In this document: positions 16,745-34,173 of the stretch, in pieces
Numbering within the stretch: position 1 is the first letter of the stretch
Layout: each line of letters opens with the position of its first letter
Assembly: GCA_965200245.1 (NCBI GenBank)
Contig: CBDATS010000005.1
Coordinates: 416,001-480,000, forward strand
DNA: 64,000 nt
Direction of reading: 5' to 3'
Origin: a bacterium
GTDB taxonomy: Bacteria; UBA8248
Notes under the pieces: generated by a model
Database searches by the model: none
Seen by the model: only the letters and a program-made list of their open reading frames with translations
What the model was told of the DNA's origin: nothing
Position numbers and translations under genes: made by a program

Positions 16745-17057
16745 GCCACCTCCTTATAGCTTTTTCTATCCGACCGGAAAAGATTCACCCGGCTATCCGT
16801 TTATTATACCTTTCGACGCCGCCAGGTTCCATCTTTTTTACATACCAATATTCCACCGATTGCCCTGCTTTCTTCCAAAGCGGCCCTCACTCCTTCGATT
16901 GCGCTCCATTACTGGCCCACTTGGTCGGGGATGAGCTTCACAACCCCCATCTCTCTTCCCTGGAGGGGAACCCCTCTGAACTTTGAAGATTCTCGCCTCC
17001 GCGTATAGAATCGTCCACTTGCGGAATCACACGATAATTCAGGAGGTTTCAGTTCCG

Positions 17058-17513
17058 ATGAGCGAAGGCGTTGCGTTCGAAAAGTGGGAAGTCGGAAGTA
17101 AATTCACCACGCGGGGCAGAACCATTACCGAGACCGACGTGGTAAACTACGTCAACCTCGTGGGCTATACGGAAAGTCTGTTCCTCGACATGGAATTTCT
17201 GCGGGAAAAAGGCCACGACAGGCGCATGGCTCCTGCCCTGTTCACCTGCGGAATCGCGGATACCCTAATCGTCCAGACAGGCGTCTTGCACGATTACGCG
17301 ATAGCGCTCCTGGGCGTGGACGGCCTTGTGGCGCGCAAGCCGGTCTACGTGGACGATACGCTCACGGTGGAAGTCGAGACGACCGACGTGCGGCCTTCCA
17401 GAAGCAGGCCCGATCGCGGTGTCGTCTCCACACACCAGAGGGTACGCAACCAAGACGGCGAGGTCGTGCTCGAGTACGACGTGAAGCGCATGCTGTTAAG
17501 AAGCGACGCCTGA
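17058..17513 (+). CDS. MaoC family dehydratase
   Basis: GRTITETDV, PVYVDDTL, RPDRGVV, NQDGEVV. AGGAGG RBS. Confidence 0.85.
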   Translation: MSEGVAFEKWEVGSKFTTRGRTITETDVVNYVNLVGYTESLFLDMEFLREKGHDRRMAPALFTCGIADTLIVQTGVLHDYAIALLGVDGLVARKPVYVDDTLTVEVETTDVRPSRSRPDRGVVSTHQRVRNQDGEVVLEYDVKRMLLRSDA

Positions 17514-19710: not shown

Positions 19711-21204
19711 TCAGCGCGGCATGAGGCTTCTGATCTGCGCCTCGAGCGGTTCCGTGGCGAGACGCTGGCAGCCCAAGTGGCGGGAGAGCGAATCGCCGTC
19801 GTGGCGCTGCCCGTCGCGCCAGATGTCCATCAGGAATCTGCCACTGCCTTGATTGGCCCACCACCTCTTGCCGAACTTCGTTTTCAGGACTTCGGATATC
19901 TGGGCCTGAAGCATCCACGCCCGAAGATAATTCGCGCAGTAGAAAAACGGGTCCACATCGTCGAGATAGGAGACTCGCGGGTATTCCACACATGTCGCCT
20001 CGCTAAGTTTCTCCCGGTAGGTGGCATCCTTGCCCCCGAGTTCCGCACCTTGGTGAAGCGTGAGTTCATAGTCGATTTTCGCCGCATAGCGCCTGAGCAT
20101 ATAGAGTTCGAAAAGCGCATGGTGCGCCAGAAACGCCTCGTAGTCCAACGCCTGCCCGCCCAGGGCATCCTCAAGCCAGAGCGGATCGAGCAGCAAGTGA
20201 TCGAAGAGCATGGCGAAACCCTCCGTTACGGAGTTGTCCCCCAGGCGCCTCCACTCGAAGGGTGCGTCCACTGCCACATTGGCAAAATGTAACGCATGGC
20301 CAAGTTCGTGCCAGAACGCGCTGTAATCGTCATAGCCGCCACGGGGTCTGATCACGAGATAGACTTCTTCGGGAACTCTCAAGGAAGCGCAAAACGCCCG
20401 GGGACTCTTCAAGGGACGGTCCCCGATGTCGAGGCGCACCCTGCCCCCCACCTGGAGATCGAGACCCATCGAGACGCAAATCTCCCGCGCCGAGGATTCA
20501 ATCTTCTCCACCGGGAAGAGGGTGTCGAATCCAGCACCCCGGGAACAATACTGCGCATCGTGGCGCTGTGCGGAGGAAGGCGGAACACCCGCTTTGCTCA
20601 TTGCCTCCTCCATCGCTTCGGCATACAGCACTTCAGTGCGTTTGAGAAATTGCGCCATCTCGTCTCGAACGGGCTCAAGCGGGTAACGCTTCACCGCCGC
20701 CATCATCCCCAGATAACTCCCGAATCCCAGTTCATCGGCCATTTCGTGCGTGGTGCGGTGAATTCTTTCCAGAAATTCGTTCTTCTCCGCCAGGACTTCT
20801 GAACGTGCATTTTCCAGAAAAATCCGTTTCTCCCGATCCGGTTCGTTCAGGAGAACGACAGCGCTTTGCCGATATGGGATGGATTCGCCCTCAGCAGTCT
20901 CTACCATCGTCCTGGTTTCGAACAAAAGCGCCTGCTCACTCGACTCTCTTGTCGCATTCCGAATATGTGCCAGTGTCAGGAAACCGTGCAGTTCGGACAA
21001 ACGCGAATGTTCGACCGGATCATCGGCCGAACCACAGAGGGAGGAGAGCACCTCGATGTTCTCAAGAGTAAAAAGATCGGCATATTCGGCGAAAATCTCG
21101 CTCAGGCGCACGTCTGCCTTGAGACCCGCGCCGATCTCGTACCATTCTTTTCTCGATTCGGCGAAGAATGCTTCGGCGCGGGTACGGATATCTGTCAAAC
21201 GCAT
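19711..21204 (-). CDS. M3-like zinc metallopeptidase
   Basis: KSPRAFC, HELGHALH (HExxH), downstream TEGFAMLF third ligand. Confidence 0.75.
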   Translation of the reverse strand: MRLTDIRTRAEAFFAESRKEWYEIGAGLKADVRLSEIFAEYADLFTLENIEVLSSLCGSADDPVEHSRLSELHGFLTLAHIRNATRESSEQALLFETRTMVETAEGESIPYRQSAVVLLNEPDREKRIFLENARSEVLAEKNEFLERIHRTTHEMADELGFGSYLGMMAAVKRYPLEPVRDEMAQFLKRTEVLYAEAMEEAMSKAGVPPSSAQRHDAQYCSRGAGFDTLFPVEKIESSAREICVSMGLDLQVGGRVRLDIGDRPLKSPRAFCASLRVPEEVYLVIRPRGGYDDYSAFWHELGHALHFANVAVDAPFEWRRLGDNSVTEGFAMLFDHLLLDPLWLEDALGGQALDYEAFLAHHALFELYMLRRYAAKIDYELTLHQGAELGGKDATYREKLSEATCVEYPRVSYLDDVDPFFYCANYLRAWMLQAQISEVLKTKFGKRWWANQGSGRFLMDIWRDGQRHDGDSLSRHLGCQRLATEPLEAQIRSLMPR

Positions 21205-21209
21205 GGGAA

Positions 21210-22463
21210 CTATATAGCCGGCCGGGTGAACCCGCGCGGCAAGACGACGATGCCCGATGGATCGACAACGGCGCCGGAATAGGCATCAGCGTTTCCATCC
21301 ACCACAGAAGCCCCCGCTTCGATCCGGTTGAATCTGTCTACAATCGCTTTCTCGATCTTCGCGCCAGCTCCGATGAGAGTGTGGTCCATGACAATCGAAT
21401 CTATGATCTCCGCCCCCTTTTCGATCATTACTCCGCGGCCGATGACGGAGCGATCGATGCGCGCACCTGCAATCTGACATCCTTCCCCGATGAGGGCGTT
21501 TTCTACCTGTGTGGATACGACGCGGCTGCCCGGGCCTGGATAGGGGCTGGTGTGAATCGGCCATTCGAGGTTACTCAAATCGAGAAGCGGCGCTTCTCCC
21601 AGCAGGTCCATCTGTGTCTCCCAGTAGGTCTTGATGGTGCCCACGTCGCGCCAGTAACCCTTCTTCTCGCTCGCCTTCATTCCGGGGATTTCATTCTGCA
21701 GAAAATCATAGGCGTAGAGTTTCTTGCGCTCACCCAGAAGAGCGGGGATGACGGTGCGCCCGAAGTCGTGCTCCCCCTCGCGCGCTGCGTCGCTGATGAG
21801 GGCATCCATCAGCACCTGGGCGGAAAACACATAGTTTCCCATGGAGCACAACGCGCGCGAAGGATCGCCCGGCATGGGCCGGGGGTCGGGATGCTTCTCG
21901 TCGAAACGCTCCACGCGTCCCGCTTCATTCACAGCCAGCACACCGAATTCCCGAGCGTCTTCGATGGGTACGGGCAGTGCCGATATGGTCGCGTCTGCCC
22001 CGCGTTCGAGATGGAAGCGAACCATCTGGCTCACGTCCATGCGGTAGATGTGGTCGGCCCCGAACACCAGCACGATGTCGGGCGCATTGTCGGTTACCAG
22101 GTTTCTGTTCTGGTGGATGGAATCGGCCGTTCCCTTGAACCAGAACTCCCCAACACGCTGCTGCGGTGGCACAGCCGTCACAAAATCCTTGCCCAGAGTC
22201 CTGCTGATGTTCCACGAACGCCTGAGATGTTCGATCAGCGACTGCGCCAGGTACTGCACCAGCACGTAGATGGAGCGATAGCCCGAGTTCACCAGATTGC
22301 TCAGCACGAAGTCGATAATGCGGTATTTCGAGCCGAACGGCACGGCAGGCTTGCCACGTGCGACAGTGAGGGGACGAAGCCTGCTTCCGGCACCGCCCGC
22401 CATGACGAAGGCTATGATTCGGGGATCACGCGAATCCAAGATATACTCCTTCGCTCGGCCCAT
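21210..22463 (-). CDS. glgC: glucose-1-phosphate adenylyltransferase
   Basis: AGGAGSRLRPLT..KPAVPFG, GTADS, GADHIYRMD, SMGNYVF, YWRDVGT. Confidence 0.96.
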   Translation of the reverse strand: MGRAKEYILDSRDPRIIAFVMAGGAGSRLRPLTVARGKPAVPFGSKYRIIDFVLSNLVNSGYRSIYVLVQYLAQSLIEHLRRSWNISRTLGKDFVTAVPPQQRVGEFWFKGTADSIHQNRNLVTDNAPDIVLVFGADHIYRMDVSQMVRFHLERGADATISALPVPIEDAREFGVLAVNEAGRVERFDEKHPDPRPMPGDPSRALCSMGNYVFSAQVLMDALISDAAREGEHDFGRTVIPALLGERKKLYAYDFLQNEIPGMKASEKKGYWRDVGTIKTYWETQMDLLGEAPLLDLSNLEWPIHTSPYPGPGSRVVSTQVENALIGEGCQIAGARIDRSVIGRGVMIEKGAEIIDSIVMDHTLIGAGAKIEKAIVDRFNRIEAGASVVDGNADAYSGAVVDPSGIVVLPRGFTRPAI

Positions 22464-22464
22464 C

Positions 22465-23919
22465 TCAACGCGTCTGCGTGTACATCGCCTTTTCGTACAA
22501 ATCGACGTAGCGCGGAACAACACCGTCCCAACCGGAATCCTTCTCCATCGCGTTGCGCATCATCATACGCCAAAACCCGCGATCCAGAAATGCCCTGCGA
22601 ATCCTCTCCATCCCGGCAAGGAAATCGGCCGGGGTGAAGGCGTCGAAATGAAAACCTGTATCCGTGCGCGCCTCAGGCACGGGTGATGAGGAAACCGAAT
22701 CTGCAAGCCCTCCAACTCGCCTCACGTAAGGTAGCGTCCCGTAGCGCATGGCGTATAGCTGGTTCAGGCCTGAAGGTTCATGGCGCGAAGGCATGAGCAG
22801 CACGTCGCCGCCCGCATACATGCGGTGGGAGAGCACCTCATCGTAAACGGGCGCGAACGCCAACCGACCCCGGTAGACCGATGCGGCCCTGGCCAAAGCG
22901 CTCTCAAGCGCCTTCTCCCCGGTTCCGAGAACGGCCAGGCTGACGCCTGAATCCATCAATTGGTCCATCGTCTCAAGAATGAGGTCGATGCCCTTCTGGT
23001 GTGCCAGCCGCGAGACGACAACACACAAAGGCCCCTCGGAGTCCAGGCCCAACTCCGCTTGAAGCGCTGCCTTGCATTTCGCCTTGCCCTCGGGATGCGT
23101 ACTCGAGAAACAGGCCGTAATGTACGGATCGATTTCGGGGTTCCAGACAGCGTCGTCAATGCCGTTCATGATCCCGAACAAAGCATCCTTTCTGAGAACG
23201 ACCACGCCCTCGAGCCCTTCTCCCTGCTCTTCCGTTTGCATCTCCTGCGCATAGCGGTCACTCACGGTGGAGATGACGTCGCCGCACAGGATACCGCCCT
23301 TCATAAAATTCACGTCACCGTAAAATTCGAGACCCTCGATATCCATCGCCTCATCAGGAAGAGATGTGTGCGCGAAATCATTCGGGTGGAAACGGCCTTG
23401 ATAGGCGAGATTATGGATGGTGAAAACGGTGGAAACCCCGCGCCATTTTTCATCGTCCCCGTGGCAGTATTTTAGCAAGGGCGGTATCAAGGCACTTTGC
23501 CAGTCATGGCAGTGGATGATGAAGGGATATTCCCTCTCCCCCTCCATATGAGAGAGCACGCCCTTGGCAAAACGTGCAAAACGCTCCGCATTGTCGGGAA
23601 AAACCCCGCGCTCGTCTCCGTAGAATCCGTCCCGATCAAACAAATCCTCGGCGGCGATGAGTCGGACGGAAACACCCTCATGTTCAAGCGAGTACACTTC
23701 GTTGCGCACGCCTGTGAATGCGTCCTCGACCCGTGTGGGAGAGCCTGCCTGATGATCCCTGAGAACAGATCGGTACGCGGGCAGGTAAACACACACTTTG
23801 TGGCCCATCCGCACGAGCGCCAAAGGCAGCGCACCGATGACGTCGCCCAGCCCGCCAGATTTGGCGAAGGGGAACATCTCACTCGCCACCATGGTAATTT
23901 CCATCGATCTCTCCGCCAT
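22465..23919 (-). CDS. glgA: glycogen synthase
   Basis: KSGGLGDV, HCHDWQ, TIHNLAYQG, SRLAHQKG, MPSRHEPSGLNQL. Confidence 0.95.
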   Translation of the reverse strand: MAERSMEITMVASEMFPFAKSGGLGDVIGALPLALVRMGHKVCVYLPAYRSVLRDHQAGSPTRVEDAFTGVRNEVYSLEHEGVSVRLIAAEDLFDRDGFYGDERGVFPDNAERFARFAKGVLSHMEGEREYPFIIHCHDWQSALIPPLLKYCHGDDEKWRGVSTVFTIHNLAYQGRFHPNDFAHTSLPDEAMDIEGLEFYGDVNFMKGGILCGDVISTVSDRYAQEMQTEEQGEGLEGVVVLRKDALFGIMNGIDDAVWNPEIDPYITACFSSTHPEGKAKCKAALQAELGLDSEGPLCVVVSRLAHQKGIDLILETMDQLMDSGVSLAVLGTGEKALESALARAASVYRGRLAFAPVYDEVLSHRMYAGGDVLLMPSRHEPSGLNQLYAMRYGTLPYVRRVGGLADSVSSSPVPEARTDTGFHFDAFTPADFLAGMERIRRAFLDRGFWRMMMRNAMEKDSGWDGVVPRYVDLYEKAMYTQTR

Positions 23920-24058: not shown

Positions 24059-24466
24059 ATGCGGTATCTGGTACGCGGAAAGGTCATCGAGGGCAAGGGC
24101 GCCGCTCTTCTCGAAGCCATCGAATTGGGCGAACTCGGGCGCGGATCCATCGCGCACCAGACGTTCTTGAAGTGTATGAAAGAGGCGCGGCTCACCGAGC
24201 AGGGCCAGGTTCGCTGGCTTGAGGTCTGCTACTGTCGCGAGGCGTTCGGTCCGGGTTACGAGTTGTATGAGGAACTGCCCTACTGGGAGGCGTATTTCGA
24301 GGAGATCGACGTGCGCTTCGCACGCAAACCGGAAGACTGCGAAGGTTATCCTGTCTGTGGCAATTGCGACTGCACGGAAAAGCTCGAGGCGAAACTCGAC
24401 AAACTGGGCGTTCCCTTCTTCAGTCATCTGAAAGAAACCGTATCTTCCTCTTCATCCTCATCCTGA
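24059..24466 (+). CDS. Cys-rich hypothetical protein
   Basis: 135 aa with coding-like codon usage; motifs CYC and C-x5-C-x2-C-x-C; GGAGG RBS. Confidence 0.7.
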   Translation: MRYLVRGKVIEGKGAALLEAIELGELGRGSIAHQTFLKCMKEARLTEQGQVRWLEVCYCREAFGPGYELYEELPYWEAYFEEIDVRFARKPEDCEGYPVCGNCDCTEKLEAKLDKLGVPFFSHLKETVSSSSSSS

Positions 24467-25444
24467 ATCGGCCCAGCGCGCCTTGCCCTGTTCTTTGGTG
24501 AGTTTCCACCTGTCGTGAACCCATAGATACTGCTCAGGTCCTTGCCGGATGAAGTTTTCCGTCTCTGCGTTCACCGCCTTGGTAAGCCTCTCGATTTCAC
24601 TCCTGGTGCTTTGCGCGTACATATCAGGCGCTATCGGATCGCTCAGCAATATTTCGTAGCGGCGTCCGTCGCCCTTTCTCAAGCACGAGATCAGGACAAT
24701 GGGCCGATCATACAATACAGCAAGTGCCGCAGGTGCGGGTGTCGTTCTGGCCAGCTTGCCGAAAAAGGGAGTGTCTATCCCCTCGCCGCCCGCATTCTGA
24801 TCCGCGAGAATCGCCACAGAACGTCCCTTTCGCAATGCCTCGCGCAGATGGAAAAAGGCATTTTTCCTGGAAAGAATCTCCTGACCCGAGGACGCACGCA
24901 TTTCATACAGCGAGGCCTCAAGTTTCCGGTTGTCCAGGGGACGAACGGGAATGGTGAGCGGAATCCCCGCCAGTGCGCCGGCATGGGCGAGGCACTCCCA
25001 GTTCCCCAGGTGTGGCACGACGAACACGCAGCCGCCCGCGTCTTCGTGAATCGCACGCACTTTTTCGAACATCTCCTCCGCCCCGTCCACAATCTCGCAC
25101 ACCATCTTCTTCGCCCGCAGGGGATCGAAGGTGGTGAGAAACTTCGCTGCCTCCAGGCAAGTGAGGACGAACGAGCGACAACTGCGCCTCGCCAGAACCA
25201 GGCGCTGCGCCTCGTTGAGTCCGGGAAACGCGATACGCAGATTCGCGCGCGCAATGCGTCTTCTCCTTGGAGCGAAACGGAAAAGCCCCTCCCCTGCCAG
25301 GACAGCGACCACGCGGCAGACACCATAGGGTAGTATACGGATCAATTTGAGAAGCGAAACGAGCAGTGCGCATTCCACCCACTGGTGCAACGCGCCCTTG
25401 TCCTTGCTGCGCTTTCTGGCGGGGTGGGGCGCGGACTTGCTCAC
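24458..25444 (-). CDS. lipid A biosynthesis acyltransferase family (LpxL/HtrB-like)
   Basis: ANLRIAFP, HLGNWE (HX4E), ILADQ, PFFG, PEQYLWVHDRWK. GTGA overlap with the upstream KS gene. Confidence 0.9.
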   Translation of the reverse strand: MSKSAPHPARKRSKDKGALHQWVECALLVSLLKLIRILPYGVCRVVAVLAGEGLFRFAPRRRRIARANLRIAFPGLNEAQRLVLARRSCRSFVLTCLEAAKFLTTFDPLRAKKMVCEIVDGAEEMFEKVRAIHEDAGGCVFVVPHLGNWECLAHAGALAGIPLTIPVRPLDNRKLEASLYEMRASSGQEILSRKNAFFHLREALRKGRSVAILADQNAGGEGIDTPFFGKLARTTPAPAALAVLYDRPIVLISCLRKGDGRRYEILLSDPIAPDMYAQSTRSEIERLTKAVNAETENFIRQGPEQYLWVHDRWKLTKEQGKARWADSG

Positions 25445-26739
25445 GGCGCGGCGGTGATGACCGCGGAGGATTGCCCGCCGATACCGTGGCTCAAGGACAA
25501 GAACGCACCCCCCGTAACAGCACATTCTTCGGTGGGGATATGGAGAGCCTCGAACGCATCTTCTTTCAGTCCAAGACCCGGCGTGGGCGGAAGGCGGCCT
25601 TCCTTGAGAGCGTATAGTCCCAGAACAATCTCAGCCAAATCGCTGGCCGATCCCATGTGTCCCGTATAGGGCTTCCAGCCTGCGAGCGGTATCGCGTCTT
25701 TCGCATCTGCGCAACAGTCCAGTAAGGCGGAGAGTTCGCCTGCGTCACCCTTCGGCGTCGCGCTCCCGTGAGGGAGGATAAAGGCCAGATCATCGCTCGT
25801 GAGGCCCGCCTCGACCAATACGGATTTCACCGCATGGCGCACCGCGCTTGCAGGCACGGGAATATAGCGATCCGAAGAGAATTCCTGGCAGTTCGCCGTC
25901 CCCATGACGCGCCCCAGGGGCTTCGCCCCCCGCGCCCGGGCGGATTCTGCACTCTCGAGCAACAGGGCAGCGGCACCCTCTCCAAGCAAGAATCCATCGC
26001 GCCGCCTGTCGAAGGGCCGGAACGACGCCGCGCTCTCTTTCGCCTTCGAGAGAATGCCCAAGCCGTCGAGTTCCAGAAGCATTATGGGGTGCGCCCAGCT
26101 TCCACAGCCCACGACAAGACCGACATCGGCTTCGCCGAAGCGCAGCACGCGTTCGCAGTTCTCAAGCGCCTGTGCACCGCATGAGGAAAGGCTCGAGAAA
26201 CTGCCGTTCGGCCCCATAAACTCGTAAATAGCCGACAAATAGCTGAAAAGGTTGTTGGGCAAACCTTCCAGCAGAAAAAAGGGGCTCACACTGTGGAGCG
26301 ACGCCTCGTTCAGGGAGGCAGGTTCAGGCGCTTCCCACGAAGCGCCTGCCGTCTGTTTAAGCGCCGCGTAGAAATCGATGTAGCCCATTCTTGTGAAATC
26401 GCCCGAGCCCACGTAGAGGGATTTCCTGTCGGGAGCCACCTCTCCCATGTCGAGACCCGCGCAGGCCACAGCCTCGGCGGCGGCGTACAGTCCCAAGATG
26501 GAACTCCTGTTCAGGAATTTGCGCTGACTGGCGAGTTTGGGCGTTACCTCGGGCGGGTCTTGATGACCGGGAACGGTGCCGTGGTAAGCGAAATTAGGCG
26601 GAAGGGACGCATTCTCCTCGCCCTGATGGCAGGCAACCCCGCATTTGCCGGCGCGAAGCGATTCCCAGTTTTCCGGGACATTCTCGCCAACAGAGGTCAG
26701 CAACCCCACGCCCGTAATCCACAACTCCTTGCCTCGCAT
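25441..26739 (-). CDS. ketosynthase homologue with catalytic Cys->Ser (putative decarboxylase or chain-length factor)
   Basis: FabF fold motifs RPFDRRRDGF, GEGAA, PHGSAT, KPYTGH. The active-site loop reads GPNGSFSSLSSCG where FabF has GPNxxxSTACAT. Confidence 0.85.
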   Translation of the reverse strand: MRGKELWITGVGLLTSVGENVPENWESLRAGKCGVACHQGEENASLPPNFAYHGTVPGHQDPPEVTPKLASQRKFLNRSSILGLYAAAEAVACAGLDMGEVAPDRKSLYVGSGDFTRMGYIDFYAALKQTAGASWEAPEPASLNEASLHSVSPFFLLEGLPNNLFSYLSAIYEFMGPNGSFSSLSSCGAQALENCERVLRFGEADVGLVVGCGSWAHPIMLLELDGLGILSKAKESAASFRPFDRRRDGFLLGEGAAALLLESAESARARGAKPLGRVMGTANCQEFSSDRYIPVPASAVRHAVKSVLVEAGLTSDDLAFILPHGSATPKGDAGELSALLDCCADAKDAIPLAGWKPYTGHMGSASDLAEIVLGLYALKEGRLPPTPGLGLKEDAFEALHIPTEECAVTGGAFLSLSHGIGGQSSAVITAAP

Positions 26740-26751
26740 CGCTCATCCCGC

Positions 26752-27204
26752 CTAGCTCAACCGGATCTCGCGCCCCAGAACACGAAAATGATGGCGCTGC
26801 TCCTCGGGGTCTTCATAGTCCGCGAGCGGCACTGTCCTGCCGCCAAAATCGGCGACCACCCGGCGCTCTCCCTCCACTGTGGCCACGCCCCTGAAGCTTC
26901 TCAGTTCTGTTTCCTCGCCCTGTGCCTCCACGTTCAGGAGGACCTGATCCCCCGGAAAGGCAAACCCATAGTACCTGACGCTCCGAACCTTTTCCAAAAG
27001 TATCCACCGCGTGAAATCCGAACTCGCCGCTTCCAGCCAGCCTGCAAGCTGCACCAGTGCCTCGACAATCAGCGCGCCCGGCATGACGGGAAACCGGGGG
27101 AAGTGGTACTCCAGAAAATCTTCGCTCATCGTGATGTTCTTCACCCCCTGGATGGAAACTCCCCCTTCCCACTCCGTCACTCTGTCCACGAGCATGTATC
27201 TCAA
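26752..27204 (-). CDS. FabZ-like 3-hydroxyacyl-ACP dehydratase (short N-terminus)
   Basis: MRYMLVDRV, GVKNIT, HFPRFPVMPGALIVEALVQ, PGD. Confidence 0.88.
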   Translation of the reverse strand: MRYMLVDRVTEWEGGVSIQGVKNITMSEDFLEYHFPRFPVMPGALIVEALVQLAGWLEAASSDFTRWILLEKVRSVRYYGFAFPGDQVLLNVEAQGEETELRSFRGVATVEGERRVVADFGGRTVPLADYEDPEEQRHHFRVLGREIRLS

Positions 27205-27216
27205 ATCAAAGGCCTC

Positions 27217-27633
27217 CTAATCGTCCTCTGTCGGCGGACCTTTGCCCAACAGAATCACCTGGGCCATCGCCAACTCCAGCGTATGGCTCATCGAGATGGT
27301 AGATTGGGTGATCTTCCTTCGCACGCTCATGCGCTCCATTGAGCCACTCAGTTTGAGCGTAGGCTTGCCCGAAGCAGAAGATTCCACCTCGATTTCGCGC
27401 AGGCGGCCCCTGCCGCCCAACCCGCCCGGCTCGGAAATGCCAAGGCCGAACGCCTTGAGGCAGGCTTCTTTCGCCGCGAAGCGGGCAGCGAAATGAGGAT
27501 AGGGATTGCTGCGCCTCAAACAATACGTCCGTTCCGTTTCGGTGAACACGTCCTCGCCGAACGCCTCGTGACGCTCATAGGCTTCCTTCAGGCGCGCCAC
27601 TTCCACCAAATCCACCCCCTGGTACAGCCGCAT
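27217..27633 (-). CDS. acpS: holo-ACP synthase (AcpS-type phosphopantetheinyl transferase)
   Basis: GVDLVEVAR, FTETERTYC, AARFAAKEA, GKP, SMSH. Confidence 0.92.
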   Translation of the reverse strand: MRLYQGVDLVEVARLKEAYERHEAFGEDVFTETERTYCLRRSNPYPHFAARFAAKEACLKAFGLGISEPGGLGGRGRLREIEVESSASGKPTLKLSGSMERMSVRRKITQSTISMSHTLELAMAQVILLGKGPPTEDD

Positions 27634-27650
27634 TTCAGAAATCTCCCGCT

Positions 27651-28403
27651 CTAGCCGGTGAGCAGACCGCCGTCCACGGCTATCGCCTGGCCGTTGATGT
27701 AGTTCGATTCCTCAGACGCCAGGAATACTACAAGTTTGGCTACGTCCTCGGGCTCGCCGAAGCGGCCCGCCGGTATGCGCTGGAGAATCGCGTCGCCGCC
27801 CTTCTCACGTACGCGCTCGCTCATGTCGGTGACGATCATGCCCGGCAAAATGGTGTTGAACTGGATGCCCCGTTTCCCCATCTCCGCAGCGCAGGCGCGC
27901 ATGAAGGCGATGATGCCCGCCTTGGCGGAAGCGTAGTTCGTCTGCCCGGCTCCACCCAGTACGCCTATGACGGAGGAGATACTGATTACCTTGCCGGAGC
28001 GTTTGCGAAGCATAATCTCACCTGCCGCCTTCGTACAGTGATATGCGCCGTCCAGACTCACGCCGAGCACCTTGCGCCAGCCAGTGGGCTTCATGGTGAG
28101 CAGCAAGGTGTCGTGAATCACACCCGCGTTGTTCACAAGGATGTCGATCGTGCCGAAATCAGCCTTCACCTGGTCGAACATGGCCGTCACATCCTCGAAA
28201 GACGAGACGTCGGCCAGGTATGTCCGCGCCTGGCCACCCGCGGCCTCAATTTCCGCCCACACCTCCTCAGCAGCCTCCGCCGAGCGACTGTAGTTGATCG
28301 CCACCGAAGCACCCGCCCTGGCCAATGCCATACAGCATGCGCGTCCGATGCCCCGTCCGCCCCCGGTCACCAGCGCGATTTTTCCACTCAAGTCGATTTT
28401 CAT
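27651..28403 (-). CDS. fabG: 3-oxoacyl-ACP reductase
   Basis: TGGGRGIG, LVNNAGV, GQTNYASAK, IPAGRFGEPEDVA. Confidence 0.9.
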   Translation of the reverse strand: MKIDLSGKIALVTGGGRGIGRACCMALARAGASVAINYSRSAEAAEEVWAEIEAAGGQARTYLADVSSFEDVTAMFDQVKADFGTIDILVNNAGVIHDTLLLTMKPTGWRKVLGVSLDGAYHCTKAAGEIMLRKRSGKVISISSVIGVLGGAGQTNYASAKAGIIAFMRACAAEMGKRGIQFNTILPGMIVTDMSERVREKGGDAILQRIPAGRFGEPEDVAKLVVFLASEESNYINGQAIAVDGGLLTG

Positions 28404-28421
28404 TCCAAATTACCCCTCATC

Positions 28422-29690
28422 TTAGGCTGCCTTTGTCACAAGCAAGGTGGCGTTTTGTCCGCCGAAACCAAAGGAATTCGTGATGGCGGCAGGCACGGGC
28501 ATCTCCCGCGCACCCCCGGCCACATAGTCGAGATCGCATTTCGGGTCCGGATTCTCCAAATTCGTCGTAGGATGCACGATGTCACGCGCGACGCTCAAGG
28601 CCGTGAAGATGAATTCGGGCGCGCCGCAGGCAGCGATCAAATGCCCGATCATGGATTTGGACGAACTCACCGCCAGTGAATCCGCCCGCGCGCCGAATAC
28701 TTCGCGAATTGCCCTGGTCTCAACCGGATCGTTCAGCTTCGTGCCCGTGCCGTGCGCGTTAACGTAAGTAATGCCGTCAGGCTGAAGACCCGCATCCTTG
28801 ATCGCCTCGCGCATTGAACTTACCGCACCCCGGCCCGCCGGGTGAGGAGCTGTCACCTGGTGGGCGTCCATGCTCACGCCATAACCCGAAAGGACGGCGT
28901 AGGGCTCAGCCCCCCGCGCACGCGCATGATCCTGCGATTCGAGAACCACCACGCCCGCTCCTTCGCCCACAGCCAGGCCTGTGCGACTCCTGTCGAAGGG
29001 GCGGCAAAGAGGGGGGGACTTCGATTTGGATGCCGCGCCGAGCAAGAGGAATATGGCCACCCCGACCGGGTGGATCATCGAATCGGCTCCGCCGCAAAGT
29101 ACCACGTCCGCCTCACCTCGGCGGATCATGCGCATTCCGAGTCCTATCGCCTGGCCAGCCGCTGCACAGGCGGAAGTTATTGTTCCCGAGAGACCGGCGA
29201 GTTCGAACCATTCCGCAATCCGGGACGTCGCCCGCTCGGGCGGGTTCTTGAAGTAGCCCGACTCGTGCGTCTCTTCGAACTCCGCAGCGAAGCGCGCAGC
29301 GTCGAAGCTGTTTTGCGGATCCGCCCAGGCGATGAAATCTTCCAGGCAGTAACTGCTAAGTCCGGTTCCCATTACTACGCCCGCACGCTCGGGCGCGTAA
29401 CCACCCAGAAAAATTCCGGCGTCCGTCATGGCACTTTGCGCGGCGTCGAGAGCAAAAAGCACCCTGCGTTCGCCCTCGCCCGCATATTCCTCGGGCAACC
29501 TTCTCCTGATGGCGGAGAGCGTCTCTTCTGAAACCTCGCCCGCTCCGGCAATGGGCAGTGTATTCGCGTCGAAGGAATCAATGGGAGAGAGACCCGACTC
29601 ACCCGCCAGCGCCCTTTGCCAGCATACCTCTACCCCCGCACCCAGGGAAGTCACCATGCCGAGCCCGGTGATGAATACCTGCGTGCTCAT
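28422..29690 (-). CDS. beta-ketoacyl-ACP synthase (FabF-like, Cys-His-His intact)
   Basis: TSACAAA, NAHGTGT, KSMIGH, NSFGFGG. ATG at 29690 overlaps the stop of the dehydratase gene. Confidence 0.92.
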   Translation of the reverse strand: MSTQVFITGLGMVTSLGAGVEVCWQRALAGESGLSPIDSFDANTLPIAGAGEVSEETLSAIRRRLPEEYAGEGERRVLFALDAAQSAMTDAGIFLGGYAPERAGVVMGTGLSSYCLEDFIAWADPQNSFDAARFAAEFEETHESGYFKNPPERATSRIAEWFELAGLSGTITSACAAAGQAIGLGMRMIRRGEADVVLCGGADSMIHPVGVAIFLLLGAASKSKSPPLCRPFDRSRTGLAVGEGAGVVVLESQDHARARGAEPYAVLSGYGVSMDAHQVTAPHPAGRGAVSSMREAIKDAGLQPDGITYVNAHGTGTKLNDPVETRAIREVFGARADSLAVSSSKSMIGHLIAACGAPEFIFTALSVARDIVHPTTNLENPDPKCDLDYVAGGAREMPVPAAITNSFGFGGQNATLLVTKAA

Positions 29691-30139
29691 GGCCTCTCCT
29701 TGAACGCCAGCCAGCCGTAGCGCCTGAAACGTTCTTTCAGTCCTTCGGGATCGTCGCTGGGAAAGTGGGCATACACGAACCGTTCGGCCCTGGCAACGGG
29801 GACACCGTTTTTTTCGACGCGCGCGCGGCACAGACTCGCCCGCTCGTTCGTATCGATTATCTCGCCGTGAATCTCCAGAGAAACGCCCGGGCCCAGATCG
29901 TTCGCCACCTCCACATCGTCGATGAGCGATATGATGCACGAGGTCCTGAAATCATGAGTGTAGACCACGAGCCAACCCGCAAGCTGTGCCATCGCCTCAA
30001 TAAGGACCGATCCGGGTACGCGGGGAGCACGCCTGAAATGGGCATTCAGGTAGACTTCGGTGAGTGGAAACGTCTTGACGCCCACGATGTACTCGCCGTG
30101 TACCACCTCTTTGATCTGATCGAAAAAGAGAAAACGCAA
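29687..30139 (-). CDS. FabZ-like 3-hydroxyacyl-ACP dehydratase (second copy)
   Basis: MRFLFFDQI, GVKTF, HFRRAPRVPGSVLIEAMAQ. Confidence 0.85.
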   Translation of the reverse strand: MRFLFFDQIKEVVHGEYIVGVKTFPLTEVYLNAHFRRAPRVPGSVLIEAMAQLAGWLVVYTHDFRTSCIISLIDDVEVANDLGPGVSLEIHGEIIDTNERASLCRARVEKNGVPVARAERFVYAHFPSDDPEGLKERFRRYGWLAFKERP

Positions 30140-30154
30140 TTTCCCGCTCTCCCG

Positions 30155-31348
30155 TCATGCGTTTTTGCCGACCACGAAGGCCACGCACACGCCGTCGAAT
30201 CCCTGAACCAACACAAGCGCGCTTCGCAGTGCATCCCGCCCCGGACGCCACGCGGTGTCATGAAACAATTCTGCTTCCGTTGCCGGAGATGGGGGCGGTG
30301 CGCCCTCGTTCAGGGATTTCATCGCCATGATCAGGTCCAGCACAGGACTCCCCCCCCAAAGGTGGCCGAATATGCCCTTCGTCGCAAGCCCCCAAGGCCC
30401 ACGGTCAACGAAAAGAGAGGCCATCGCTGCGGCCTCCGCACCATCCAATCGAGGCTTGTCCTCTCCATGAATCACGAGGAGGTCCACCTGCTCTGCTCCC
30501 AGACCGGCGCTTGCGAGCGCATTCCGGGCCGATTCCAGTATTGCTCCGGTGAGACCACCCCGTTTTTCAAGCGCGCGAGAGGAAGAATATCCTTTGAGCC
30601 AACAAAGTATATCGGCCGGGTCAACATTCTCGGGCTGATCGAGGAGAATCACGCCTGCCCCCTCGCCCAATTCCTCCGCGTCACCCTCCGATCCGCTACG
30701 CAGGGCCGCACGGGCCATCATGCGGGCGGAAATCACCCCGCTTACACCTGCAGCGAGGGCGAGTTTCGCCTTTCCCGATTGAATCGAGGCTGCCGCCTCG
30801 CAGACAGCGCGCGCCGTGGCATCAGCGCCCGAACTGAAAACGGCGTTCTCTCCCCGCCACCGATGCTGAATCGCCACCTGACTGAAGCCGATCGCATTCA
30901 ACATGCCCAGCGGCCATAAGGGGGGGATGGTGTCCATCCCCTCACGGAAAAAATGTCCCAAGTCCACTCGGCCATCCGATTCTCGTAACGCGCCTATCAA
31001 ATCATCTTTCCCCGGATCGACGGAATCCATCCCCGCGAAAAAAGCGATCTCCTCTTCCTCCCTCCCCAGGAAAGCGGAACCGTCGCCCATCGCTTCATGA
31101 ATCGCCGCCAGAAGCATGTGGGTCTGATGGCCCATGATTCTCGCCGCGCGGCGATCCACACCGAGGGACTCAGGGTCTATCGGCGCGCACCGCGCCGTTC
31201 TGCAGAGAGGATAACCGGCGAGTTCGGGATCGGCGTCAGCAACCAAAAATGTGCGACCCGCGCAAAGCGCTTCCCAAGCGGGCCCTGCGCCGCGCCCCGC
31301 CGCTGTTATCAGGCCGGCGCCAGTGACTGGAATGGAGGGAAACTTCAC
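30155..31348 (-). CDS. ketosynthase homologue lacking the catalytic Cys (chain-length-factor-like)
   Basis: PPLWPLGMLNA, GENAVFSSGADA (Cys position is Ala), LGEGAG, IHGED, KGIFGH. GTGA-coupled to the upstream KS. Confidence 0.8.
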   Translation of the reverse strand: MKFPSIPVTGAGLITAAGRGAGPAWEALCAGRTFLVADADPELAGYPLCRTARCAPIDPESLGVDRRAARIMGHQTHMLLAAIHEAMGDGSAFLGREEEEIAFFAGMDSVDPGKDDLIGALRESDGRVDLGHFFREGMDTIPPLWPLGMLNAIGFSQVAIQHRWRGENAVFSSGADATARAVCEAAASIQSGKAKLALAAGVSGVISARMMARAALRSGSEGDAEELGEGAGVILLDQPENVDPADILCWLKGYSSSRALEKRGGLTGAILESARNALASAGLGAEQVDLLVIHGEDKPRLDGAEAAAMASLFVDRGPWGLATKGIFGHLWGGSPVLDLIMAMKSLNEGAPPPSPATEAELFHDTAWRPGRDALRSALVLVQGFDGVCVAFVVGKNA

Positions 31349-32655
31349 GCGATCTCGGGTCCGCCCAGACAAAGACAAGCGTTCTGCCCACCGAACCCGA
31401 AACTGTTGGAAAGGGTCACGCGATGGACCTGCGCCCTCGTCTCGTTGGGTACGTAGTCCAAATCGCACTTGGGGTCACGATTCTTGTAGTTGATGGTGGG
31501 CAGTATCTCGGAGCGGCGCATTCCCTCGACCGCCAGAATCGCCTCGACGGCCCCAGCCGCACCGATGGTGTGGCCGATCATGGATTTGTTCGAACTGACA
31601 GGTATATTCTCCGCGTGCGCGCCGAACACCTCCTTGATGGCCTTGGTTTCGGTGAAATCGTTCTTGGGCGTCGAGGTACCGTGCGCGTTGATGTATTCGA
31701 CTTTATCGGGCGCAAGCCGCGCGTCGCTCAGCGCCTTTTTCATGGCGAATACCGCGCCCAACCCCCTCGGGTGCATGTCGGTGATGCGAAACGCATCCGA
31801 GGAATCGCCGTAGCCGAGCACTTCTCCCAGAATCTCGGCACCGCGGGCGTGCGCGTGCTCATAGCTTTCCAGGATCATGGCGCCCGCGCCTTCAGACATC
31901 ACGAAGCCGTTTCGCTTCCTGTCGAAGGGCCGGGACGCACTCTGCGGGGTTTCGTATCTCTCCACCAGCGCGGTGAGCAGGACAAAACCGAGAAACCCCA
32001 CGTAGGTGATGGGTGCCTCGCAGCCTCCGGCCACCATCACGTCGGCCTTCGCGTCTCGGATCAAACGCACCGACTCGCCAATCGCCTGCGCTCCTGCCGC
32101 GCAAGCCGAGCAGATGGAGACCATTGGCCCCCGGCAGTCGAAATCAATGGCGACGACCGAGGTCGCCACATCGGATTTTCTTCTGAAAAACATCATCAGA
32201 TCATAGCCGCCGCGGCTCTTGAGTCCCTCAATGTCCCATCCGCCTTGCAAGAGGTCGCCGTTTGCGGGTTTCCAGTAGGGGAAAATGCGGAGCAACTCTT
32301 CGACATCGGGATGATCGCCGTGAGAACCAAGCGCGACGCCGATTCGATTTCTATCAGAAACCTCATTGAGCCGCGCCTTGCGCGCCGCCTGGGATACGGC
32401 CACGCGCATCATCCGCACGCCGCGCGTGGAGAATTTGTCGAGTCTGCGCCCTGCACCGTTTTCCTGCGAGGCGACCCACTCGTCCTTTACCTCGCCTGCG
32501 ATTCGGCAGGGCAGTTTTTCAGGATTGAAACTGCGGATCTCATTGATTCCGGAGTGGCCCTCGCGCGCGGCATCAAACGTGGAAGCGACATCCCCGCCCA
32601 GAGGCGTCAGCGCTCCGTATCCGGTAATCACGACCCGTCTGCCGTTACCGGCCAT
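31345..32655 (-). CDS. beta-ketoacyl-ACP synthase (FabF-like, Cys-His-His intact)
   Basis: RRVVITGYG, CSACAAG, NAHGTST, KSMIGH, NSFGFGG. Confidence 0.93.
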   Translation of the reverse strand: MAGNGRRVVITGYGALTPLGGDVASTFDAAREGHSGINEIRSFNPEKLPCRIAGEVKDEWVASQENGAGRRLDKFSTRGVRMMRVAVSQAARKARLNEVSDRNRIGVALGSHGDHPDVEELLRIFPYWKPANGDLLQGGWDIEGLKSRGGYDLMMFFRRKSDVATSVVAIDFDCRGPMVSICSACAAGAQAIGESVRLIRDAKADVMVAGGCEAPITYVGFLGFVLLTALVERYETPQSASRPFDRKRNGFVMSEGAGAMILESYEHAHARGAEILGEVLGYGDSSDAFRITDMHPRGLGAVFAMKKALSDARLAPDKVEYINAHGTSTPKNDFTETKAIKEVFGAHAENIPVSSNKSMIGHTIGAAGAVEAILAVEGMRRSEILPTINYKNRDPKCDLDYVPNETRAQVHRVTLSNSFGFGGQNACLCLGGPEIA

Positions 32656-32697
32656 CCACGCGTTCTCCCGGCAAGAAGGATGGAATGAGGCAGGCCC

Positions 32698-33261
32698 TCA
32701 GGAGGAGAAGAGGCTCTTTTCCTCCTGGAGCCGATTCAGCCAGTTCTGTACCACCTCATCCCCGCTAGGCAAGGAGGCGGGCTCGTTCGTCTGCGCACAT
32801 ACAATTCGCGTTCCATTCTCGACTTTCCAGTCAGAACCCGCCGGGCTTTTCTCTGGCAAGAAGTTCAGCACGTCGCGCACCGCGCCCGCCAGCGTCTTCG
32901 GCGTGACGAGGGCAGGCAGTTCATCCACGGGAGTTCCGGGCACAAGAGCATCGGCTGCCTCGCTCAAGCGCAGTTTCAGGACTTCGACTCCCGTTTCCGT
33001 CACCTCGCTTTCATCGTTGATCGCCACGCCCTCACCAAACATCTCCTCCACGTGCTCCAGGACGAAATTGCGCGCCATCTTGATGCCGAACACCTGTTCG
33101 AGGCGAAAGTTCACGTCCAGGAAATCGAGCGACAAAACGCCCAAGTCATCCACCAGAGAGCTGTCCGGCTCAATGGTCTCCAGATCGACGCCTGTGGTTT
33201 GAGAAATAGCCTTTTTCACTTCTTCCAGAATCGTATCGTCCGATATCAGGTTTTGCGACAT
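32698..33261 (-). CDS. extended acyl carrier protein (AcpXL-like core, 187 aa)
   Basis: PDSSLVDDLGVLSLDFLDVNFRLEQVFGIK, followed by a long insertion and a C-terminal extension; acidic; AGGA RBS. Confidence 0.85.
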   Translation of the reverse strand: MSQNLISDDTILEEVKKAISQTTGVDLETIEPDSSLVDDLGVLSLDFLDVNFRLEQVFGIKMARNFVLEHVEEMFGEGVAINDESEVTETGVEVLKLRLSEAADALVPGTPVDELPALVTPKTLAGAVRDVLNFLPEKSPAGSDWKVENGTRIVCAQTNEPASLPSGDEVVQNWLNRLQEEKSLFSS

Positions 33262-33396
33262 GGGTGTCCTCTTTCACGATCAAGCGCGCGGTCTATCCTC
33301 GTATTGGACGCGCACGAATTTGCCGATGCTTTCAAGCGTATAGAACCAAGGAAGGAAACGAAAATCAACCGCGCCTGAAGAATCTCCCCTGTTCCG

Positions 33397-34173
33397 TTAC
33401 CCCGGAGAACGATTCAGCCGGTTGCTGAGACCTCGGTCGACCACCAGGGTCTGTCCCCGTATGGAAGCCGCCCCCGCGCCTGCGAGAAAATAGACCGACT
33501 CGGCCACTTCTTCTGGCGTCACGAAAAAACGCTCGGGCAACGAATCCAACTCAGGTTGAACCAGGCGCAGCGTCTTGAACGAATCGGTTTTCACCAGTCC
33601 TGCGCAGACGGCGTTTACCGATACGCCCTTCTCCTCGAAACTCTCCGCCCAGTGCCTGACCGCCGCCTCCATGGCCGCCTTCATCGGCCCCAGCGGGTAG
33701 TCGGGATGATAGAAGCGACTCCCCAGACTCGATATGAACACGACGGAGCCGCCCCGTTGCGAGAGCAGCGGAAGCGCTCCCTGCAGGCAGAAGACATTGC
33801 CCAGAAAATTCGTTTCCACCAGAAGTCTGAGATCACGCTCCAGGAGCTTCTCCCAGGACTTGAAGGGCGCGCGCGCCGCGTTCAAGACGAGCGCGTCGAT
33901 CCGTCCGAACTGTTCCTGCACACGGGTGAACATGGCCTTGACGGCGTCTCTTTTCGAAATGTCCGCCGGAATGACAACCGCCCGCCCTCCGGCGGCACCT
34001 ATTTCGCGGCAAAGCTCCTCCACCATTTGCGCGGAACGGCCCTTGCCGTCCCTGTGGTTCAGGACCAGATGCGCGCCTTCACGCGCGAAGCGCCTCGCAA
34101 TGGCCGCGCCGATCCCGCGGGAGGCGCCCGTCACCACGACCACTTTATCTTTCGTTTCCACAGGTTTGGGCAT
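33397..34173 (-). CDS. SDR reductase, FabL-like enoyl-ACP reductase
   Basis: TGASRGIG, LNAA, ISSLGSRFYHPDYPLGPMKAAMEA, resembling the FabL ISSLGS..Y...KAALE pattern. First gene of the FAS cluster. Confidence 0.75.
   Translation of the reverse strand: MPKPVETKDKVVVVTGASRGIGAAIARRFAREGAHLVLNHRDGKGRSAQMVEELCREIGAAGGRAVVIPADISKRDAVKAMFTRVQEQFGRIDALVLNAARAPFKSWEKLLERDLRLLVETNFLGNVFCLQGALPLLSQRGGSVVFISSLGSRFYHPDYPLGPMKAAMEAAVRHWAESFEEKGVSVNAVCAGLVKTDSFKTLRLVQPELDSLPERFFVTPEEVAESVYFLAGAGAASIRGQTLVVDRGLSNRLNRSPG

Follow-up and report, generated by a model that had tools for sequence, protein, structure and literature searches.

Organization of the operon

The stretch of DNA analysed here, hereafter the window, comprises 64,000 nucleotides from the genome of a Nitrospinota bacterium (assembly GCA_965200245.1, contig CBDATS010000005.1, positions 416,001 to 480,000 of the forward strand). 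The minus strand of the window holds eleven co-oriented open reading frames (ORFs) at positions 24458..34173, all of which can be identified by Pfam and NCBIfam (11/11; Table 1), in the content and order given by a preliminary description made from the letters alone. Their sequences specify an AcpXL-like acyl carrier protein (ACP), the reductase FabG, two FabZ-type dehydratases (DH1 and DH2), an enoyl reductase of the FabL type among the short-chain dehydrogenases/reductases (SDR) and four ketosynthase (KS) homologues, KS1 to KS4, together with the holo-ACP synthase AcpS and a terminal homologue of the acyltransferase LpxL. We propose, with moderate confidence, that the operon is a dedicated second type II fatty acid synthase (FAS) line, primed by decarboxylation of malonyl-ACP, which supplies a secondary acyl chain of lipid A.

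The genes are separated by gaps of 12-135 nt, apart from two 4-nt stop/start overlaps read from the sequence: a GTGA at 31348-31345, which joins KS1 to KS2, and an ATGA at 29690-29687, which joins DH1 to KS3 and has AAGGAGAGG just before it. The LpxL ORF, when taken from 25525, overlaps KS4 by 85 nt, and its family match starts at residue 45. A Pfam scan of the 11 operon proteins revealed no further family on any of them. The arrangement is not due to chance, because its synteny is conserved in the related Nitrospinota loci (7/7, one of them interrupted by a contig end) and in other phyla.

Table 1. Genes of the operon in window coordinates, listed in the direction of reading
Gene product	Position	Strand	Family evidence and remarks
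SDR, FabL-like	33397-34173	minus	Pfam adh_short_C2 171 bits; FabL NF005975 179.6 bits, below cut-off
ACP, 187 aa	32698-33261	minus	Pfam PP-binding 30.9 bits; NF005079 48.3 bits
KS1 (Cys)	31345-32655	minus	Pfam ketoacyl-synt N and C domains
KS2 (Ala)	30155-31348	minus	weak ketoacyl-synt matches, 38-39 bits; GTG start
DH1, FabZ-fold dehydratase	29687-30139	minus	Pfam FabA 41.6 bits
KS3 (Cys)	28422-29690	minus	Pfam ketoacyl-synt N and C domains; ATG start
FabG, 3-oxoacyl-ACP reductase	27651-28403	minus	TIGR01830 285.9 bits (cut-off 297.75)
AcpS, holo-ACP synthase	27217-27633	minus	Pfam ACPS 58 bits
DH2, FabZ-fold dehydratase	26752-27204	minus	Pfam FabA 68 bits; top PDB matches FabZ, e.g. 4h4g
KS4 (Ser)	25441-26739	minus	Pfam ketoacyl-synt N and C domains
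LpxL homologue	24458-25525	minus	PF03279 162.5 bits; start codon uncertain

Active sites of the four ketosynthases

Active-site residues were read against the FabF of the same genome (TIGR03150, 639.8 bits) in E. coli FabF numbering, and we took Lys335 to be an active-site position of FabF as well. An excerpt of PMC7138838 gives Cys163, His303 and His340 as the FabF residues, places Phe400 in the GFGG loop 1 and defines gating loop 2 as Asp265-His268-Thr270; the discussion in that excerpt raises the possibility that loop 2 tunes substrate or ACP handling. By these residues KS1 and KS3 are canonical Cys-His-His ketosynthases with Lys335, GFGG and Asp265. The Cys of KS1 is present in 19/19 sequences (that of the window and 18 orthologues) and its NAHGT and KSM.GH motifs in 18/19, the one exception being a frameshifted orthologue, while in KS3 the Cys, NAH[GA]T and KS..GH are all present in 12/12. 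The FabF-type residue set (triad, Lys335, GFGG, Asp265) is complete in KS1 and KS3 and incomplete in KS2 (no Cys) and KS4 (Ser, GIGG); the TIGR03150 scores of all four proteins fall below the cut-off. Loop 2 of KS1 reads DA[FY]RITD in 19/19 sequences across phyla, so that Arg takes the place of His268, and in KS3 the same position holds Gln in 7 of 12 sequences and Arg in the other 5, again across phyla. This change in KS1 and KS3 may relate to the handling of the enlarged ACP. The His of DA[YH]H[IM]T was also considered as the first catalytic His, which would have made KS1 a 'Cys-Arg-His' enzyme, and was rejected: a 37-residue spacing seen in the FabF of this genome, together with the excerpt of PMC7138838, identifies the motif as gating loop 2, while NAHGT and KSMTGH contain the His residues of the triad.

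The two remaining homologues lack the catalytic Cys. In KS2 the catalytic column holds Ala (7) or Pro (5) and never Cys (0/12), with His303 retained in 10/12, Lys335 in 11/12 and His340 in 10/12 sequences. KS2 also evolves fastest, with orthologue identities of 42-72% vs 67-90% for KS1. It is encoded beside the active KS1 with GTGA coupling, as is often the case in ketosynthase/chain length factor (KS/CLF) pairs, and is best viewed as a putative CLF-like homologue. KS4 has Ser in the catalytic column in 15/15 sequences and retains His303, Lys335 and His340 in all 15; the gating Phe is absent, the GFGG loop reading G[IL]xG. The two His and the Lys, kept always in KS4 and mostly in KS2, are those that serve in decarboxylation of malonyl-ACP. 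This makes KS4 a candidate malonyl-ACP decarboxylase and primer, or a partner subunit. The series Cys, Cys to Ala, Cys, Cys to Ser that had been read earlier for KS1 to KS4 agrees with both the alignment and the orthologue columns.

In a quick maximum-likelihood tree (64 rows, support from the Shimodaira-Hasegawa-like approximate likelihood ratio test only) KS1, KS2, KS3 and KS4 are each monophyletic across phyla (support 99-100), and KS1 and KS3 are sisters (support 89). A search for related loci with KS2 alone returned two true relatives and two spurious short matches (L003 and L004).

The enlarged carrier protein, reductase and dehydratases

The phosphopantetheine-bearing Ser44 of the 187-residue ACP is invariant in 47/47 aligned sequences. 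Among NCBIfam models NF005079 matches it best, with 48.3 bits under a cut-off of 83, which falls short of an AcpXL-type assignment. The top sequence match in the PDB is the 'specialized ACP' RPA2022 of Rhodopseudomonas palustris (2kw2/3lmo, E 1.5e-9), which we take to be an AcpXL orthologue; the alignment to 2kw2 spans residues 12-71 only. In the fold predicted from the 47-sequence alignment all 187 residues form one compact unit, with a predicted local distance difference test score (pLDDT) of 95.3 and a predicted template modelling score of 0.89; a prediction from an alignment of 8 sequences only (pLDDT 45.8) was not used. A Foldseek search of the PDB with the model found nothing at E <= 0.001, the best match again being 3lmo/2kw2, a weak one at E 2.4e-3. 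The family is small but diverse, with 66 clusters at E <= 1e-10 and 9 at E <= 1e-30 among 1.84 billion representatives. Its consensus carries a CxxC...CxxC zinc ribbon, which is kept in 10/10 members from other phyla and lost in 9/9 carrier proteins of the Nitrospinota type; the ACP of the window has one of the four cysteines. The motif before the phosphopantetheine serine reads GVLS in the long ACPs of Nitrospinota vs GAES in 10/10 relatives from other phyla.

The most conserved companion gene of the long ACP is the SDR. Its best model is that of FabL (NF005975), with a cut-off of 328 bits, and its top sequence match in the PDB is the NADPH enoyl-ACP reductase 3oic (E 1e-34), presumably the FabL of B. 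subtilis. The Tyr and Lys align with those of 3oic, one residue being deleted between them, and the motif SSLG..FY..YPLG.MK occurs in 11/19 SDR orthologues under a strict regular expression. The SDR probably serves the dedicated line as its enoyl-ACP reductase. DH1 and DH2 both retain the catalytic His and Glu in 15/15 orthologues, and DH2 lies directly upstream of KS4 in every locus with a KS4 orthologue (27/27).

Distribution across phyla

We searched species-representative genomes with alignments of the ACP and KS4, a pattern-seeded search that could miss some occurrences. The gene order is found again, in large part or in full, in metagenome-assembled genomes (MAGs) labelled Thermodesulfovibrio/Nitrospirae, Syntrophobacteraceae, Syntrophobacter sp., Desulfarculales, Desulfobacteraceae, 'delta proteobacterium', NC10/Methylomirabilota, Acidobacteriota, Sedimenticolaceae and another gammaproteobacterium. 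MAGs of at least six differently labelled phyla or classes carry the operon. No cultured isolate was found among the close matches in this collection; all were MAGs. The architecture, which the preliminary description did not recognise, is not rare: it is widespread in uncultured lineages of several phyla.

We compared 27 loci with a KS4 orthologue (37-48% identity) in detail. LpxL lies directly downstream of DH2-KS4 in 26/26 assessable loci, the 27th stopping at a contig end, which upholds across several phyla the link between the FAS genes and the LpxL homologue that had been drawn from the window. All eleven genes occur in the order of the window in 5/27 loci, plus two more found through the ACP-based search, and a sixth of the 27 has all eleven with ACP and KS1 swapped. 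In variant operons FabG, AcpS or both are missing, or KS2 and KS3 are missing jointly, and seven loci have KS1 and KS4 only. KS2 and KS3 are jointly present or jointly absent in most loci, a pattern compatible with chain building in two stages by two KS pairs as first suggested, with two departures: an NC10 locus (L155) has a 1-kb gap that probably hides a divergent KS2, and a Nitrospiraceae locus (L143) has KS3 and no match upstream.

Four Nitrospirae loci contain the SDR-ACP-KS1 trio alone, among unrelated neighbours and apart from LpxL. They would fit a reading in which the eight genes other than FabG, AcpS and LpxL make a fatty acid for another use, in phospholipids or as a free or secreted lipid, and their linkage to these three reflects shared regulation of genes for envelope lipids and no channelling of substrate. 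The operon also contains no thioesterase or other release enzyme, although release is left unexplained either way. The invariance of DH2-KS4-LpxL across phyla, including operons without FabG or AcpS, argues against this reading, and in at least one of the trio-only genomes a separate contig carries FabG-DH2-KS4-LpxL, as the common record prefix of L134 and L098 shows. We regard such another use as quite improbable.

Interdependence with the housekeeping genes

The genome of the window (G000) is a 3.68-Mb assembly of 15 contigs, 95.8% complete with 8.1% contamination. As the preliminary description had required, it has a separate housekeeping fab locus, plsX-fabH-fabD-acpP-fabF-rnc (L012, C4:160000-176000). 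The operon was called self-contained in the same description, a term that does not survive the comparison: FabD and FabH are missing from the operon and present in the fab locus, from which they must be borrowed, and the only phosphopantetheinyl transferase, the only PF03279 acyltransferase and the best FabG of the cell sit in the operon. Its AcpS is the single PF01648 match in the genome and the only phosphopantetheinyl transferase found; the carrier proteins of the genome number two, AcpP and the long ACP. Of 45 TIGR01830 matches the operon FabG is the strongest (about 285.5-285.9 bits), the next scoring 245.7.

The fab locus lacks fabG in 3/3 genomes of the window's family (f1: G000, G033 and G042) and reads fabH-fabD-fabG-acpP in 3/3 sister-family genomes without the operon (L207-L211 among the loci compared). 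The operon FabG is probably also the housekeeping ketoreductase of the cell. It is 41-44% identical to the FabGs of the sister-family fab clusters and 48-59% identical to the operon FabGs of other phyla, and appears to have displaced the native fabG of this Nitrospinota family. The housekeeping enoyl reductase may be a second FabL/FabI-like SDR, encoded at C4:~595.2-596.0 kb. We infer that FabG, AcpS and LpxL of the operon are the working copies of the cell in this family, and that the operon holds three genes that the cell cannot dispense with.

Natural deletions within the phylum agree with this view. Among the 51 Nitrospinota species genomes in the collection, KS2 is present at orthologue level in 36/41 other genomes of the window's family; the other three families have paralogue-level matches only (24-28% identity). 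The five family members without KS2 are G033, which belongs to the genus of the window (2.9 Mb, 98% complete), and four genomes of the genus g8 (2.0-2.2 Mb). The G033 locus is bounded by the same PAC2-family gene and conserved convergent ORF (orf135) as in the window, and its FabG, AcpS and LpxL are intact. Two scars remain: a 19-residue C-terminal remnant of KS3 ahead of FabG-AcpS, and, between AcpS and LpxL, a stretch in which residues 1-55 of DH2 run on in frame into the C-terminal ~22 residues of KS4. In two of the g8 genomes the locus consists of FabG-AcpS-LpxL alone. AcpS is kept beside LpxL in the 3 reduced loci examined and FabG in all reduced loci, and a search for the long ACP gave an AcpP-level match only in G033 and found it in 0/4 g8 genomes. 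Loss of the eight accessory genes is thus tolerated and has happened on at least two occasions, and FabG, AcpS and LpxL are always kept. These three being the working copies, the deletion lineages retain exactly them, and the series from full operon through scars to FabG-AcpS-LpxL shows an accessory operon capturing essential genes. Since LpxL is the only copy and survives the loss of the long ACP and the ketosynthases, it must also use ordinary acyl-AcpP in these lineages.

The LpxL homologue and its acceptor

The terminal gene product is a clear member of the Lip_A_acyltrans family (PF03279; cut-off 22.3 bits), with an H[LI]GNWE (HX4E) motif in 15/15 orthologues. The HX4(D/E) motif is catalytic in the late acyltransferases of PF03279. 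Its best NCBIfam model is NF005120 (LpxXL), at 133.3 bits against a cut-off of 273, so that it does not qualify as LpxXL; a Beijerinckiaceae LpxXL beside acpXL (L110), used as a positive control, scores 362.1 on the same model. The second-best match is NF006487, 'lysophospholipid acyltransferase family' (118.5 bits); the protein also scores 97 bits on the LpxL/LpxP model TIGR02207 (cut-off 298) and 81.5 bits on the phosphatidylinositol mannoside acyltransferase model NF005919.

The LpxL homologue is the single PF03279 match in the genome, which has a complete Raetz pathway (LpxC, LpxD, LpxA, LpxB, LpxK and WaaA, next to BamA). Between lpxA and lpxB lies a gene resembling a uridine diphosphate N-acetylglucosamine 3-dehydrogenase (G000:C5:~797.9-798.9 kb; L112:9941-10912, minus strand), with a best-model score of 215 bits on NF040723, below the cut-off; it hints at a lipid A backbone with 2,3-diamino-glucose, as in some Alphaproteobacteria. 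In 2/5 other genomes examined, one of Syntrophobacter and one of Syntrophobacteraceae, PF03279 again matches the in-cluster LpxL alone; carriers of the module from NC10, the delta-proteobacteria and Nitrospirae have 2-3 matches each.

These counts bear on the main rival explanation, that the same FAS line hands its chain to some other envelope lipid, such as a lysophospholipid, an aminolipid or another glycolipid. The extra PF03279 genes of the NC10, delta-proteobacterial and Nitrospirae carriers could be their true lipid A enzymes, and the homologue in the window passes only the broad PF03279 model, with a lysophospholipid family second best and the phosphatidylinositol mannoside model also scoring. 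On the other side, it is the only protein of its family here and in two of the five other genomes, here with a complete Raetz pathway for company, the LpxXL model matches it best, and loss of the long ACP from reduced genomes has left the gene in place. An acceptor other than lipid A is a serious but fairly unlikely alternative.

Comparison with known systems

The closest known counterpart is the rhizobial acpXL-lpxXL cluster for the very-long-chain fatty acid of lipid A, a C26-C30 (omega-1)-hydroxy acyl chain, with which cluster the operon shares a common logic: a dedicated ACP, a FabZ-type dehydratase, an active and a Cys-less ketosynthase, and a terminal enzyme of the LpxL family. Three Rhizobiales loci, found through the ACP search, read acpXL-fabZXL-fabF2XL-fabF1XL-ADH-lpxXL (ADH, alcohol dehydrogenase). 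The likeness pointed out in the preliminary description stands in that the ACP and LpxL of the window match the AcpXL-type (NF005079, 2kw2) and LpxXL-type (NF005120) models best, and fails in that both scores lie far under the cut-offs (48 vs 83; 133 vs 273). The ACP of the window is twice the size of AcpXL, with an insert and a C-terminal hairpin, and the rhizobial cluster has two ketosynthases vs four here. FabF1XL is a canonical Cys-His-His ketosynthase; in FabF2XL the Cys column holds Gln or Glu, and His303 and Lys335 are missing, whereas KS4 reads Ser-His-His with Lys335. The quick tree places FabF1XL outside a group of KS1, KS3 and the genome's own FabF, and FabF2XL on a remote and very long branch, which speaks against orthology. 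The rhizobial cluster includes a Zn-dependent alcohol dehydrogenase (AdhA2XL), and none occurs among the 11 genes of the operon, which has a FabL-type reductase, FabG, AcpS and a second dehydratase in addition. The two systems thus have their logic in common and are built from non-orthologous parts. A Zn-dependent alcohol dehydrogenase ORF does lie in the window at 14949-15989 (plus strand), 8.5 kb from the operon on the opposite strand, and is not linked to it.

The LpxL/LpxM enzymes of the E. coli type belong to the same PF03279 fold family and have the HX4E motif, and the homologue in the window is the sole candidate for a late acyltransferase in its genome; unlike them, it ends a FAS operon with a private ACP.

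Aryl-polyene clusters combine a ketosynthase and a CLF-like partner with a dehydratase, a ketoreductase, an ACP and an acyltransferase of the lysophospholipid acyltransferase (LPLAT)/LpxL-like type that anchors the product in the outer membrane. This resemblance in gene content, from the ketosynthase and its Cys-less partner to the acyltransferase, would suit a pigment of the aryl-polyene or flexirubin kind, or another product of a highly reducing type II polyketide synthase, anchored by an LPLAT-type acyltransferase. The FlxB model also scores 239.7 bits on the operon FabG, although this is under its cut-off of 340 and under the scores of FabG models. The operon has an enoyl reductase, moreover the most conserved companion of its ACP, and Pfam revealed no adenylating starter enzyme, thioesterase, methyltransferase, glycosyltransferase, LolA or MMPL gene in the operon or its ~8 kb flanks; the nearest AMP-binding gene is an ORF of the acetyl-CoA-synthetase type at 42320-44275, 8 kb away. 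A pigment pathway is accordingly highly improbable.

The last comparison concerns Cluster I of anammox bacteria. According to an excerpt of a preprint (10.64898/2026.05.19.726425), synthesis is started by a KS/CLF-like heterodimer of amxFabF2 and amxFabFmut through decarboxylation of malonyl-ACP, and B12-radical SAM and phytoene-desaturase-like genes lie beside the ACP, FabZ and FabF pair. The heterodimer is an experimentally tested precedent and a model for how the present operon could manage without FabH. As far as the excerpt goes, this cluster likewise has an ACP of its own, a variant FabZ and a FAS-type ketosynthase next to which a Cys-less homologue is encoded, a shared logic that would suit a ladderane-type or otherwise radically remodelled hydrocarbon pathway here. 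By the same excerpt, however, amxFabFmut has lost both His residues too, which KS4 (15/15) and most KS2 sequences retain, and Cluster I carries the radical SAM and desaturase-like genes that the operon lacks and is without its LpxL. Pfam found no radical SAM or phytoene-desaturase-like gene in the operon or its flanks, and LpxL stands at the operon end; a ladderane-type pathway is effectively refuted by this gene content.

A proposed pathway

Under the proposed lipid A reading, AcpS would activate both AcpP and the long ACP, and the housekeeping FabD would load malonate. A Cys-less ketosynthase, alone or as a KS/CLF-like partner, would then decarboxylate malonyl-ACP to prime the chain, which would explain an operon without FabH. 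Ser and Ala variants of ketosynthases are reported from mutant studies to have decarboxylase activity. In the basic form of the operon KS1 would elongate with KS4, and in the eleven-gene form KS3 with KS2 would add a second stage; FabG, DH1 or DH2 and the FabL-like SDR would complete each cycle on the dedicated carrier. The LpxL-family enzyme would finally acylate Kdo2-lipid IVA from the Raetz pathway, adding the completed chain in a secondary position. The chain is probably longer than, or otherwise unlike, the bulk fatty acids.

Several points weigh against this proposal. The clues to the pairing of the ketosynthases diverge, gene overlap joining KS1 to KS2 and co-occurrence joining KS2 to KS3. 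The LpxL homologue lies below every curated subfamily cut-off, leaving lipid A unproven as acceptor, and its survival without the dedicated ACP and ketosynthases weakens the case for specificity towards a special chain. The rhizobial analogy fails at the orthologue level, the decarboxylase step leans on studies of Ser and Ala mutants, and product, acceptor and chain length are all deduced beyond the domain level. The counts of only copies could also fail, resting as they do on an assembly of the stated completeness and contamination.

A bolder version of the proposal regards the operon as a widespread, horizontally spread cassette for outer-membrane remodelling in uncultured bacteria of several phyla. 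The two KS pairs and the enlarged ACP, whose ancestor would have had the zinc ribbon, would build a novel lipid A chain, for instance extra-long or functionalised in mid-chain, that spans or cross-links the outer membrane, the Ser of KS4 would form an acyl-O-enzyme that hands the chain over to LpxL instead of serving in decarboxylation only, and displacement of the host fabG, acpS and lpxL when the cassette reached Nitrospinota would have made it impossible to delete. We consider this version decidedly unlikely.

Dedicated FAS lines that feed lipid A have been characterised essentially only in Alphaproteobacteria (acpXL-lpxXL), and the literature on the acpXL/lpxXL cluster concerns that class among the matches listed, as judged from titles and the beginnings of abstracts. 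No literature on the present operon was found in searches on very long chains of lipid A, LpxL gene clusters and Nitrospinota sponge symbionts. With four KS homologues, a double-size carrier and its own reductases, the operon has the look of a counterpart that arose by separate assembly and is more elaborate. If the proposal is true, many uncultured nitrite oxidisers, syntrophs and NC10-type bacteria carry an undescribed modification of lipid A, which would bear on membrane permeability, on host recognition of sponge symbionts and on the interpretation of lipid biomarkers. New here are the findings on single copies and displacement for FabG, AcpS and LpxL, the series of deletion scars, the constant KS4-LpxL linkage (26/26), and the residue-level account of the four ketosynthases with its contrast to FabF2XL.

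Habitat, expression and flanking genes

Most of the window is contained in five sequencing runs from two studies, and both DNA runs among them are labelled sponge metagenome, one of them perhaps from the very sample that yielded the assembly; the bacterium that carries the operon is an uncultured, sponge-associated member of the Nitrospinota. Two metatranscriptomic runs, a library of one of the two studies, contain 0.33 and 0.28 of the sampled words of the window. Their contigs match parts of the operon without differences, including the ACP/KS1, DH2/KS4 and KS4/LpxL junctions, and their depth over the operon is about that of the flanking genes. This is a hint that the operon is expressed, with the limits that DNA can occur in RNA libraries and that contigs cannot show a single transcript; gaps of the RNA library over parts of the operon carry no weight either way. 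One contig from a DNA run (X4) joins across 30723-33871, with a shorter side of 20 letters, and skips 3147 nt that hold part of KS2, KS1, the ACP and part of the SDR; the joint could be a deletion variant in the population or an assembly artefact, and was given no weight.

A scan for promoters and terminators was uninformative: it gave 1 promoter-like site where 2.6 were expected, and 17 terminator-like sites where the expectation was 10.1 +/- 3.7. The operon is flanked by glgA/glgC downstream and by the divergent PAC2-family gene upstream. A 497-aa ORF at 19711-21204 (minus strand) adjoins glgC and a 489-aa ORF at 21168-22637 on the opposite strand overlaps it, neither having a Pfam match. 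A MaoC/FAS1-type dehydratase ORF lies at 16983-17513 (plus strand), roughly 7-9 kb from the operon on the other strand. The ORF convergent on LpxL, orf135 (24059-24466, plus strand, 135 aa), has no Pfam match and contains a Cys-rich stretch; it is 59-92% identical across all family loci, including the reduced loci without the accessory genes.

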